Shown in pieces: positions 27,735-30,385 of a DNA stretch of 64,000 bases. The notes under the pieces were generated by a model that did no database searches, was not told the origin of the DNA, and saw nothing but the letters and a program-made list of their open reading frames with translations. Position 1 is the first letter of the stretch. Each line of letters begins with the position of its first letter. A program made the translations under genes and the position numbers. Source of the DNA: an uncultured Verrucomicrobiae bacterium (GTDB taxonomy: Bacteria; Verrucomicrobiota; Verrucomicrobiia; Chthoniobacterales; JAFAMB01); the NCBI GenBank assembly GCA_963762565.1, contig CAVXLD010000001.1, forward strand, positions 896,001 to 960,000. Reading direction: 5' to 3'.

Positions 27735-28535
27735 TTACAAAACAGAGGCGTCGAGTCCCATCTCCCGCAGCACGCTCACAAAATAGCTACATTGACTTTC
27801 CGTATAATACTTATGCGCGTTCAGGCTGTACTGGGTGGCGTCTTTGACCAAGCCCTTTTTCAACCAGACTGCAGCCCGGGCATAGTAATACGCTGGAGTC
27901 TTGCCGGGGAAATCCATCTCATCAATCAGAGCCATCGCCTTAGCCGTCTGATTAGCTAGAACATAATCAAGCGCCATCCTGAACTGAAGGATTTCGGACT
28001 TAGGATCGACCTGACCTAGATCCTCCAAAACTGAACGGGCTTGGTCGTAGCTGCCCTGCAACATCAAGGTGTCCGCCAGATTGAATTTCGCTGTGTAGAA
28101 CTTCGGGTTCTCGGTTAGAGCACGATTAAATTGGGAAATCGCCTCCTGGTAATCTTTCTTTTTGCTAGCGACAATTCCCAGGAGATTAGCGGTTTCCGGG
28201 TTATCTGGATCCAGTTTCTCTGCCTGCTGGGCGTCGTTGGACGCATCATCAATTTTTCCGTCTTTCAGGTCACGCGCGGCTTTGTTTAGGACAGAGTCAT
28301 AGCTCTTCTTGGCCTCATTCTTATTTTCAGCGTAGCAAAACGAGGTACCAAGCAAAATCGCGATCAGGCCCAGGGTAGGGAGGGCGCGCGTCCCCGCGCG
28401 CCGTAATTGGCGATGTAGGGCCGAAGAACGTAACTTCACCATTCGGCTTGGAATATCCTCGGCTTCTAAGACAGATCGCGTGGACGCGATCCCTCCCTTT
28501 TTTATCACATCCGTCGCACACAGATACATCTTCAT
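27735..28535 (-). CDS. TPR-repeat exported protein (true start may be downstream)
   Basis: Hydrophobic signal-like segment and TPR-like helices; ATGA overlap with the aroF stop. Confidence 0.7.
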
Positions 28536-29545
28536 ACTTCACGTCCAATTGCTTGCGCTACCCCTCGAATTCTGCCGACCAAGTCCTCGAACTCGTTAGG
28601 GAGAAGACATTGTTCACCGTCGCTCTTGGCGAGTTCGGGCGCATTGTGCACCTCAATCATGATAGAATCTGCGCCAGCGGCAACTGCAGCTAAGGCCATT
28701 GCCGGAACAAATTGGCGGACACCGATTCCATGCGTTGGATCAACCACAACGGGTAAATGCGTTTCCGCTTTCAGGACCGGCACCGCATTCAGATCAAGCG
28801 TATTGCGGGTCATGGTCTCGAATGTCCGGATACCGCGTTCGCAAAGCAGGACATTAAAGTTCCCTTCGCTGAGGATATACTCGGCGCTCATCAAAAGATC
28901 TTTAATTGAAGCCGCCATCCCGCGCTTCAACATCACTGGTAGCCTGGTTCTGCCCACCTCACGTAGCAGCGAGAAGTTTTGCATGTTTCGGGCGCCAACC
29001 TGCAGGCAATCAGCGTATTCAGAAACCAGATCCAGATCTTTCGTGTCCATCACCTCTGTGATGATAGGTAATCCCGTTTCCTTGCGCGCTTCAGCCAAGA
29101 GCTGAAGGCCGGCCTTTCCCAAGCCTTGGAAACTGTATGGCGACGTTCGCGGTTTAAAGGCGCCTCCTCGAAGAATCTTGGCGCCGGCTTTGCCAATCGC
29201 TTGAGCAATCGCGATGATCTGATCCTCATTCTCCACCGAGCAGGGTCCCGCCATCAGCACCACCTCTTTTCCACCCACGACGACATCCCCTACTTTTATT
29301 TTAGAGGGCATGCCTCGGAACTCGTACGAAACGAGCTTGTATGGCTTTAGTACGGGCGTCACTGACTCGACGCCGGGAAACGCGCCCAGCGGCTTTTCCC
29401 GGATTTTATCCTCGGGGCCGATAACACCGATCACCACGCGCATTTCGCCGCGGCTGACTTCGGCTCTTAAACCCCAGTCATGGATTCTAGATACGATATG
29501 CTCGATCTGATCTTCGGTAGCATCGGGACGAGTGATAATTATCAT
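28532..29545 (-). CDS. aroF: DAHP synthase, type I-beta with N-terminal regulatory domain
   Basis: [47 protein letters not shown]. Confidence 0.95.
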
Positions 29546-29685
29546 TGCGAGGGCTTCGGCAGTCTGCGGCGGATTTACTAGTTCGCAACCCTTTTGGCTG
29601 TTACCCCAGGAAAGAGCGGAGCCGATTTTAGTGTCGGGTGCGAGAGGGTTTGAGAGAAAAGTCGCCATGGCGGGAAGTTGAGTTC

Positions 29686-29731
29686 CAGCTTCTGAGAGGT
29701 TGCGTAGGTACTAATCGCAGCTCAGAAGCTG
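29686..29731 (-). promoter_or_regulatory. Attenuator-like hairpin overlapping the leader stop codon
   Basis: Perfect 11-bp IR CAGCTTCTGAG (29686-29696) / CTCAGAAGCTG (29721-29731), followed on the minus strand by a C/T-rich tract. Confidence 0.65.
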
Positions 29732-29820
29732 TTTGAGCCCCACCAAAAATAAAAGAAATAGACAGAGGACAACCCAGCGCTAGGCCTTGCAGAAAGGGTT
29801 CGGGTTGAACTCGTATTCAC
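29722..29820 (-). CDS. Aromatic amino-acid leader peptide MNTSSTRTLSARPSAGLSSVYFFYFWWGSNSF
   Basis: GTG start 6 nt after GGAGG; seven consecutive aromatic codons; same strand as and ~180 nt upstream of aroF. Confidence 0.8.
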   Translation of the reverse strand: MNTSSTRTLSARPSAGLSSVYFFYFWWGSNSF

Positions 29821-29870
29821 GGTGGTCCTCCAGGAATACCGTAATGATCGGCCTTTGCCAAATGAAAAAA

Positions 29871-30385
29871 AACAGGAGCTAGGAGCTAGAATCTAGGAGT
29901 TAGGAGGCGTTCTGCGGCCTGAATCGTTCTCGTCCTCGAAAAGGTTGCACGTTAACAAGGCGTTTTTGTTCCCAACTCCCGGAGGGGAGCCGCTTTGGCG
30001 CGTAGCCCACGATCTCGCGATGTTTCTTTCAGCGCTCAATCCAACCACGAAATGGCGCAACAGGCGGCTCCCGTGAATAACCCAGCGCGATGATTTACCC
30101 GTGGTTCCGATTCGTTTAGACCGGGCCTCAGGGCTGCGAACCGCTGGGTCGTTCCCGGGAGCCGCCTGTTTTTGCACGTTTCGGCCGGATTAATGTTGAG
30201 ACGAATTTCGCGAGGGCGGACAGATTAACGCCAAAGCGGCTCCCGTCCAGGGCGCTGGGTAATGGCGCGGTGCACTAACTGCCACCGCCCATCGAGGACG
30301 AGAACGAGGACGATTTCAATAGAGCCGCGACGCCCCTCCTAGCTCCTAGATTCTAGCTTCTAGCTTCTAGCTTCTAGCTCCTGTT
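29871..30385. repeat. Full composite ~515-bp nested palindromic element (MITE-like)
   Basis: (AGGAGCT)n shell, then (TCGTCC)n shell, then GGGAGCCGC core; a close copy lies at 35522-36045. Confidence 0.9.

Follow-up and report, generated by a model that had tools for sequence, protein, structure and literature searches.

A 64,000-nucleotide (nt) stretch of DNA from an uncultured Verrucomicrobiae bacterium (positions 896,001 to 960,000 of contig CAVXLD010000001.1, assembly GCA_963762565.1; hereafter the window) carries on its minus strand a 32-codon open reading frame (ORF) with seven consecutive aromatic codons, located upstream of the gene for 3-deoxy-D-arabinoheptulosonate 7-phosphate (DAHP) synthase (aroF). 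This enzyme catalyzes the first common step of aromatic amino acid synthesis and is the entry to the shikimate pathway. We consider it very likely that the small ORF is a sensor of aromatic amino acid supply of the leader-peptide type, read by the ribosome and kept in most of the related genomes compared here. For the device as a whole, our preferred reading, to which we give a probability of roughly one half, is a ribosome-mediated attenuator whose output would be Rho-dependent polarity, gated by the translation of a C-rich tract that lies between the leader and the enzyme. In this genome, the translation of the leader, the stalling of ribosomes on it and the direction of control are all deduced from sequence features and from their conservation in the family.

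An aromatic leader conserved in the family

The leader ORF extends from a GTG start codon at 29820 to a TGA at 29724-29722 (minus strand; 32 codons plus the stop) and encodes V(M)NTSSTRTLSARPSAGLSSVYFFYFWWGSNSF*, with YFFYFWWGSNSF as its C-terminal end. Its regulatory run, YFFYFWW (29760-29740), can be read directly from the sequence as TAT TTC TTT TAT TTT TGG TGG, that is, two Tyr, three Phe and two Trp codons; the ORF, its translation and the seven aromatic codons all agree with an initial annotation of this DNA. The stop codon is found 53 nt before an ATG at 29668 and 176 nt before an ATG at 29545, which are two in-frame candidate starts of the DAHP synthase gene on the same strand. In the six-frame translation of the 6.1-Mb genome assembly that contains the window, there are 64 runs of at least five F, W or Y residues, and YFFYFWW is the sole run of seven or more that is not poly-Phe derived from a T or A tract. 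The initial annotation also pointed to a GGAGG sequence 6 nt upstream of the GTG. This sequence is present in the window (29831-29827), placed at or before the predicted transcript start, but it is not a conserved trait, being kept in only two of the six loci of the window's genus (L001 and L002).

The family comparison was based on at least 450 nt of upstream sequence from 39 orthologous DAHP synthase loci, plus a second copy of the gene in one genome. The 39 loci came from two retrievals (23 and 16), and a further locus (L021) was dropped as it offered only 63 nt upstream. Orthologues of the enzyme were found in 40 of the 43 family genomes, its closest named relatives being metagenome-assembled genomes (MAGs) labelled Chthoniobacteraceae, Chthoniobacter, Chthoniobacterales and Spartobacteria, with 79-63% identity, which points to the order Chthoniobacterales of the Verrucomicrobiota. 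The stretch itself was found in soil metagenomes. A leader precedes the enzyme at 28 of the 39 loci. Homologous leaders account for 27 of them and belong to seven genera, namely the window's genus (g1; six loci, including L001, L002 and L007) and g4, g5, g7, g8, g10 and g11. The other one, L019, is a variant outside the alignment, with an unrelated aromatic leader, MCKFCVSFWYFPW, preceding the same hairpin.

All 27 aligned leaders have a start codon and a length of 24 to 32 codons. The start is ATG in six genera, and in g1 it is GTG at five loci and ATG at L007. Counted over the last 15 codons, every leader contains at least four Phe codons, at least one Tyr codon and at least one Trp codon. 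The order of the Phe and Tyr codons is shuffled between genera (YFFYF, FFYY, FYYF, YFFFY and YWFFF), and the synonymous codons are all in use (TTT 79, TTC 56, TAT 38 and TAC 23). Furthermore, the pairwise differences between leaders peak at third codon positions in g1, g8 and g4, the three genera with several sequences. Since the aromatic content is kept under a permuted order and with varied synonymous codons, it appears that codon identity is under selection and that the ORF is translated as a counter of aromatic codons. The aromatic run, which the initial annotation had put forward for comparison among relatives, thus holds for the three amino acids in every aligned leader. Its proposal that ribosome stalling integrates three pools of charged tRNA is supported as far as the conserved and translated-looking leader is concerned, and it is left with more than one candidate for the output step.

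The leader is preceded by a promoter-like element that recurs at the same position. In the window, it consists of a -35-like box TTGGCA (29856..29861) and, after 17 nt, a -10-like box TATTCC (29833..29838), both on the minus strand. The motif (T)TGGCA is found at the same distance in g1, g4, g5, g7, g8 and g10, and these genera also share a TAnnnn hexamer, the putative -10, after a 17-nt spacer. Directly 5' of the -35-like box, a T-tract (29865..29872, minus strand) may function as an UP-like element, and a T run before TTGGCA recurs in most of the 27 loci. With the loci aligned at the leader start, the -10-like hexamer ends 12-17 nt before the start codon, and the predicted 5' untranslated region (UTR) would be only about 5-10 nt. 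A sigma-70 consensus scan of 29300-30300 called no promoter, and it passed over this element because the -10-like box lacks a T at position 6. The initial annotation had considered that an aroF transcription start downstream of the ORF would speak against a leader; the conserved element places the predicted start just upstream of it. Additionally, one metatranscriptome contig of 185 nt, identical to the window, covers 29557-29741, from the leader interior almost up to the second ATG. It hints only weakly at co-transcription of the leader and aroF, as it is a single contig and could derive from DNA carry-over. The remaining metatranscriptome matches to the region correspond to short repeats or lie inside the gene. 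Such low-complexity short repeats (e.g., CTCCTAGATTCTAGCTCCTAGCTCCTG) occur at 29865-29908, 29961-30003 and 30230-30263, just upstream of the promoter-like element; with 90-95% identity and loose ends, they are shared with many metatranscriptome contigs that are otherwise unrelated.

Stop-codon hairpin, upstream start codon and C-rich tract

The stop codon of the leader is held in the 5' arm of a predicted hairpin, hereafter helix B (29686..29731, minus strand). In the window it is the perfect 11-bp hairpin of the initial annotation, in which CAGCUUCUGAG (29731-29721) pairs with CUCAGAAGCUG (29696-29686), with the TGA inside the 5' arm and an inner 4-bp hairpin. An equivalent hairpin was predicted at the stop codon in 26 of the 27 loci, its 5' arm beginning in or directly after the stop; at L127 the hairpin is degenerate, and the locus is also broken in frame. 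In the family, the outer stem encloses a small inner hairpin, and the internal loop on the 3' side is pyrimidine-rich. In a MAFFT alignment of 20 non-g1 sequences, 82% of the cells of the outer stem (11 pairs) are paired, versus 24-39% when the partner is slid, and compensatory changes were found in 5 of the 11 pairs. A model-fitted alignment of 22 sequences gave both-sided changes in 7 of the 11 pairs, with other figures similar. The MAFFT and RNAalifold treatment of all 27 hairpin regions, which misaligned the g1 arms and recovered only 5 pairs, was set aside for these two counts. Read manually against g8 (CGGCUUCUGACC/GGUCAGAGCUG), the g1 arms show one pair flipped from C-G to G-C and a bulged U that gains a partner. 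A cmscan search of 29300-30100 against Rfam (E up to 10) returned two chance matches only (E 4-5).

Two further pairings involve the regulatory codons. A 1:2 hairpin, GGCGCUU/AAGCGYC, of -7 to -12 kcal/mol and with the stop codon in its loop is predicted in most loci of g4, g5, g7, g10 and g11. Its 5' strand is formed by the Trp-Arg-Phe codons (UGGCGCUU), and its 3' strand, AAGCGYC, lies at the foot of the next hairpin. In the trpL layout, the stop codon is located in the loop of the 1:2 hairpin, and the 1:2 and 2:3 segments are mutually exclusive. The arrangement in these five of the seven genera resembles it, with the stop codon in the 1:2 loop and a 3' strand that is the foot of the next hairpin. 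The second pairing, specific to the window's genus, spans 29668..29745 on the minus strand: the Trp-Trp-Gly codons, UGGUGGGG (29745-29738), pair with UCCCGCCA (29675-29668), the last base of which is the A of ATG 29668. It is part of the minimum free energy folds of all six g1 loci and is not conserved in the other genera.

Downstream of the hairpin, the in-frame start ATG 29668-29666 opens a 41-codon C-rich tract that leads into DAHP synthase (29546..29668, minus strand), 29546 being the last base before ATG 29545. In the comparison of the 27 loci, an ATG is found 48-71 nt past the leader stop in every case, and in all genera the hairpin ends only 8-25 nt before it. In 25 of the 27 loci, an uninterrupted reading frame connects this upstream ATG with the second one, over a tract of 114-138 nt whose lengths take 8 distinct values, each a multiple of 3. 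The encoded peptide evolves fast; its third-position excess is clear in g1 and modest in g4, and g8 shows none. Most likely, loci that have the leader module translate the tract from the upstream ATG. The leaderless orthologues offer no in-frame start codon (ATG, GTG or TTG) ahead of the second ATG, and consequently the latter (29545) is probably a working start too. Regarding composition, the tract of the window has a C content of 0.34 and a G content of 0.21 (C/G 1.62; the 95th percentile of the reference distribution, 120-nt windows of contig C1, is 1.56), and it is C-rich and G-poor at all 17 loci measured (C/G 1.43-2.94). The C/U-rich, G-poor stretch before aroF that the initial annotation described is therefore real, but the conserved in-frame ATG 29668, from which it is most likely translated, was missed. 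Within the tract, an A-rich stretch followed by GUUGCGA is conserved about 45 nt before the second ATG (29590-29600 in the window; L006, L012, L014 and L015) and reads in frame as (K/N)x(S/G)C(E/D). In the window, this GUUGCGA could pair with UCGCAA at ATG 29545, a pairing that the other genera do not offer.

Terminator scans detected no intrinsic terminator in 29300-30300 or between the leader and the gene, in line with the initial annotation, which saw no strong one. Across the family, only weak hits were obtained, in 10 of the 27 loci and at positions not common across genera. As positive controls, the scan was applied to five aromatic leaders that precede the same enzyme type in other phyla, and it recovered strong terminators in all five (-16 to -26 kcal/mol plus a U-run). 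These classical attenuators belong to Gemmatimonadota (L083, L089 and L093), Terriglobia (L095) and an unclassified MAG (L067), 5 of 80 loci from other taxa; they carry mixed aromatic runs such as YFTSFWGY, FTFAFYF, FWYFTYRYWGF and YRYYYYF, and none of the five loci has an Rfam match. Over 40 kb of the window, terminator-like sites numbered 26 versus 24.2 (standard deviation [sd] 4.7) in shuffled sequence and 30 versus 23.9 (sd 4.9). Similarly, sigma-70 consensus promoters in positions 1-40000 were not enriched over shuffled sequence (7 versus 9.8 and 5 versus 10.8 expected). The lineage may rely on signals other than sigma-70 consensus promoters and canonical terminators.

Proposed mechanism and alternative explanations

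According to the attenuator reading, transcription would begin at the promoter about 20-45 nt upstream, and the 32-codon leader would be the first element after the short 5' UTR. When charged tRNA-Phe, tRNA-Tyr or tRNA-Trp is scarce, the ribosome would stall in YFFYFWW, 5-11 codons before the stop, and would leave helix B free to fold during transcription. With a good supply, the ribosome would reach the stop codon and cover the 5' arm of the hairpin. In that position the small Trp-Arg-Phe/stop hairpin could form in most genera, and the 3' arm and the C-rich RNA downstream would be left bare. Rho termination would then take place in the 114-138-nt tract, opposed by ribosomes that start at ATG 29668. 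The regulatory codons directly adjoin the hairpin. Since stalling would therefore free the hairpin and a ribosome at the stop codon would cover its 5' arm, the folded hairpin should be the ON state for a biosynthetic gene. Rho is favored as the output because there is no terminator, the tract is C-rich, its frame is conserved and a rho gene is present. That gene lies co-directionally upstream (32813-31494, minus strand; Pfam PF07497/PF00006) and indicates that the organism has Rho. Taken by itself, the assignment of the output step to Rho or polarity seems plausible to us, at somewhat less than an even chance. A wider proposal is more speculative and we advance it only tentatively: in the terminator-less attenuators of this family, stalling might decide the starts at the upstream ATG, with the in-frame extension doubling as a zone for Rho loading and termination (a "translated rut," from Rho utilization).

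Several observations weigh against this attenuator reading. The leader is absent from 11 of the 39 orthologous loci and from the second copy. Two of these loci (L132 and L133, in g4) are deletion derivatives that have lost the promoter, the leader, the hairpin and the upstream ATG altogether, so that the stop codon of the RNase D-like gene directly adjoins what is left of the C-rich tract. In both, this remnant has lost the reading frame of the enzyme, which for its part favors translation of the tract where the leader module is present. Considered with the other nine leaderless loci, the two suggest that the module was lost repeatedly. The hairpin covariation that the initial annotation had marked for study is there as compensatory changes, but its score is modest, 0.218 versus 0.177 (sd 0.017) in shuffles and reached by 6 of 500 of them, because the core, CUGACC/GGUCAG, shows sequence conservation. 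The covariance model R1, derived from the genera other than g1, matches 22 of 22 non-g1 leader loci and none of the 14 leaderless, outside-family or second-copy loci, but it also matches none of the 6 g1 loci and nothing in the window's genome. Consequently, the homology of the window's hairpin with that of other genera rests on its position and on a comparison of the arms by eye. Neither g1 nor g8 shows a clear 1:2 hairpin. When 12 loci were folded without the 5' arm, no conserved alternative (3:4) partner emerged for the 3' arm, which leaves unexplained how the state of the hairpin would be handed on to Rho or to initiation. At 17 loci, the unpaired probability around ATG 29668 (-12 to +6) was compared between ribosome-free RNA and RNA with a ribosome placed on the first aromatic codon, on the last one or on the stop codon, and it did not shift consistently; in the window its mean is 0.42 for free RNA, 0.40-0.43 with a stalled ribosome and 0.46 when the stop codon is occupied. 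The ground state is helix B with or without a stalled ribosome (-17 to -29 kcal/mol in 26 of the 27 loci), and thus only a kinetic, co-transcriptional decision fits. Finally, the C-richness of the tract could merely reflect a Pro/Ser/Thr-rich encoded peptide.

Some of these observations bear equally on other uses of the same sensor. Its output could be purely translational, with the state of the leader and hairpin setting initiation at ATG 29668 or ATG 29545 and transcription unchanged. In g1, the Trp-Trp-Gly codons pair with the segment that ends in the A of ATG 29668, and a stalled ribosome would free that start; the short distance from the hairpin end to the ATG in all genera and the lack of a terminator are also compatible, and local structure could matter given that the family mRNAs mostly lack a Shine-Dalgarno sequence at these starts. 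However, the pairing with the ATG is confined to g1, stalling does not consistently raise the unpaired probability of the ATG at the 17 loci, and a hairpin that is the ground state in both conditions would leave little dynamic range at equilibrium, so we regard a purely translational switch as rather unlikely. Stabilization by a stalled ribosome is known for erm leader mRNAs in Bacillus. By analogy, a ribosome stalled here, together with helix B near the 5' end, could block 5'-end-dependent decay, and starvation would lengthen the half-life of the mRNA. The position of the leader at the extreme 5' end, behind a predicted UTR of about 5-10 nt, would suit such protection, as would the absence of any terminator or sequestering structure found and the presence of an RNase E/G homologue (349 bits). 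It appears improbable nonetheless, as RNase J was not found in the genome (46 bits versus a cut-off of 400) and the conserved in-frame C-rich tract and the 1:2 hairpin would be left unexplained. It is harder still to see helix B as a non-canonical intrinsic terminator without a U-tract, with the Trp-Arg-Phe/stop hairpin as antiterminator. Helix B is stable and conserved, a U-rich stretch follows it after 5-8 nt in a subclade of g4 (L128, L129 and L130), and a leader upstream of leuA in this family, described below, likewise ends in a hairpin without a U-tract. However, in the window and in most genera the stem is not followed by a U-tract, and the regulatory codons are in or beside the segment that competes with the 5' arm of the terminator; stalling would favor helix B and the gene would be off under starvation, the wrong sign for a biosynthetic gene.

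The two remaining explanations question what is sensed, or whether anything is. As an arrest peptide, the C-terminus of the leader (GYFFFYWRF-N/I-stop, or FWWGSNSF-stop in the window) would respond to free aromatic amino acids inside the ribosome tunnel and, at high supply, hold the ribosome on the stop codon and the 5' arm of the hairpin. Such a device would have the right sign, because a ribosome on the 5' arm keeps helix B from forming, and Tyr-Trp-Arg-Phe is nearly invariant, lying 1-2 codons from the stop in five genera and 5 in g8, with FWWG or FWWR as the g1 version, 6 codons from the stop. However, the invariant UGGCGCUU is accounted for by its pairing with AAGCGYC, the aromatic residues upstream of Tyr-Trp-Arg-Phe are freely permuted, which fits the counting of codons better than contacts in the tunnel, and in other phyla the enzyme is preceded by unrelated mixed-aromatic leaders that have classical terminators; tunnel sensing is therefore very improbable. 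We find it equally hard to credit that the ORF is no regulator at all and either encodes a small hydrophobic protein or arose by chance in T-rich promoter or spacer DNA, a possibility already disfavored. The Shine-Dalgarno sequence is not conserved and 11 of the 39 loci have no ORF, but a start codon, frame, length of 24-32 codons and aromatic content maintained over seven genera with third-position variation, a constant place between the promoter-like element and DAHP synthase, and the lack of any other such run in the genome all argue for a regulatory role.

Genomic context and comparison with known leaders

The gene under the putative control of the leader (28532..29545, minus strand) encodes a DAHP synthase core (Pfam PF00793, E 3.9e-80) with a ferredoxin-like N-terminal domain (PF18152, E 1.6e-20). 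Its stop codon is overlapped by 4 nt by a tetratricopeptide repeat (TPR) protein gene (28535-27735), which is followed by a gene for an HhH-GPD glycosylase-like protein (27730-26984); both were called from their ORFs and Pfam matches and are on the minus strand. Judging from spacing only, these two genes would form an operon with the DAHP synthase gene, and they are unexpected partners for a gene of the aromatic pathway. Upstream and co-directional, between the rho gene and the leader, is an RNase D-like gene (31478-30387, minus strand; PF01612/PF00570), which in leaderless relatives abuts DAHP synthase. A 94-codon ORF (29893-30177, minus strand) between this gene and the leader promoter has no Pfam match and may not be a gene.

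No comparable device was found at other genes of the pathway. The second DAHP synthase copy (contig C3, 53% identity) is without a leader; a WFFYW run upstream of it was judged from the sequence to be due to chance, as it has no start codon and is antisense to the 5' end of a divergent gene. In the window's own genome (G000), an anthranilate-synthase-like gene (C3:640050-640814) is abutted by a gene read as hisI-like, and of two prephenate dehydratase genes (C1:291522-292040 and C1:1166606-1167142) the first is abutted by an upstream open frame. The frames upstream of these three genes contained no leader ORF, the second prephenate dehydratase gene not having been examined in detail, and thus the leader of DAHP synthase is the only aromatic leader found in the genome. 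A genome-wide screen for further leader-like short ORFs was noisy, with at least 445 candidates, and only a Leu-rich leader, MRLFAQLLSLELLLLGSGAPNDSLLLSL (C12:261794-261892, minus strand), 92 nt upstream of leuA, was taken further. It is kept in all 12 family loci that include the gene start (L139-L150), with an LLLGSG(A/T)P motif and competing hairpins, and the scan found no terminator in 11 of the 12. With leuA and DAHP synthase, terminator-less leader-peptide switches look like a habit of the family, and the leuA leader may follow the same "translated rut" logic. Short DNA repeats also recur near gene starts throughout this genome (e.g., C1:668658), translating as WWGEAPE, SRTRTTTRTRTK or ITNHQSPITNH/LVISDWW; the latter are tandem GTGATTG-like units, and such repeats inflate screens for Trp- or Thr-rich leaders.

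To our knowledge, most documented cases of leader-peptide attenuation come from Proteobacteria, Actinobacteria and a few Firmicutes, and nearly all of them involve an intrinsic terminator. The trpL and pheL leaders (Rfam Trp_leader and Phe_leader) each sense one amino acid and end in a 3:4 terminator with a U-tract. In contrast, the window leader covers three amino acids, has no Rfam match and lacks a terminator. Rho-dependent leader-peptide switches include speFL, and the TnaC and SpeFL peptides sense their ligands in the ribosome tunnel. Rho-dependent control has also been described for tnaC (PMC8429421) and for the toiL upstream ORF (uORF) of topAI-yjhQ (PMC12121999). The locus of the window resembles these systems in its short ORF, in a ribosome near the stop that would gate Rho, and in having no intrinsic terminator together with Rho and a C-rich tract. 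However, tnaC, speFL and toiL sense a free ligand or drug via the nascent peptide and switch on catabolic or stress genes, whereas the codons of the window leader point to tRNA charging and to a biosynthetic gene, with a role for Rho that is presumed.

The closest parallels, compared here by description only, precede the same enzyme. In Corynebacterium glutamicum, an aroR leader (Phe-Tyr-Phe) was predicted before aroF (PMC4046766), and ribosome stalling on it is reported to raise expression under Phe limitation (Neshat et al. 2014, as summarized in PMC11802643). Both aroR and the window leader are short mixed-aromatic ORFs directly before the DAHP synthase gene. However, aroR has three regulatory codons without Trp and is described as a transcription attenuator, whereas the leader of the window, from a different phylum, has seven consecutive codons for three amino acids. 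It lacks an intrinsic terminator and is followed by a conserved upstream start, in frame with the enzyme, and by a C-rich tract that is apparently translated. In Acholeplasma, the uORFC-13-1 motif of aroF is a predicted uORF with promoter boxes and a U run coding for at least one Phe, directly upstream of a terminator stem; it is reported as confined to Acholeplasma and environmental sequences (PMC8632094). It shares with the window the uORF and the promoter boxes before a DAHP synthase gene, and differs in that the window leader is not upstream of an intrinsic terminator stem. For Actinobacteria, a 2005 survey reported no RNA elements for Phe or Tyr genes (PMC1262725). Our literature search, which did not extend to most subscription journals, found no paper on leader-peptide attenuation in Verrucomicrobia among the matches listed, judging by titles and the openings of abstracts. 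Thus, the initial annotation, which knew of no such leader in this lineage, agrees with the published record that we found for Verrucomicrobiota, but the device itself has precedents in aroR-aroF and the Acholeplasma uORF. The sensor is very probably of the C. glutamicum aroR-aroF kind, and what distinguishes it here is the missing terminator together with the conserved in-frame C-rich tract and its likely translation.

A sensor for three amino acids could serve as a compact biosensor part, and the family offers 27 natural variants in which a conserved start codon and a C-rich tract, apparently translated, seem to take the place of the terminator. If Rho-dependent polarity is indeed the output, two mechanisms that are usually handled apart would be joined, and for a biosynthetic gene. 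It would also give a handle on read-through regulation in lineages poor in canonical terminators. For the organism and its relatives, these results suggest that entry into the shikimate pathway is guarded by a single Phe/Tyr/Trp leader in this uncultured Verrucomicrobiota family from soil.

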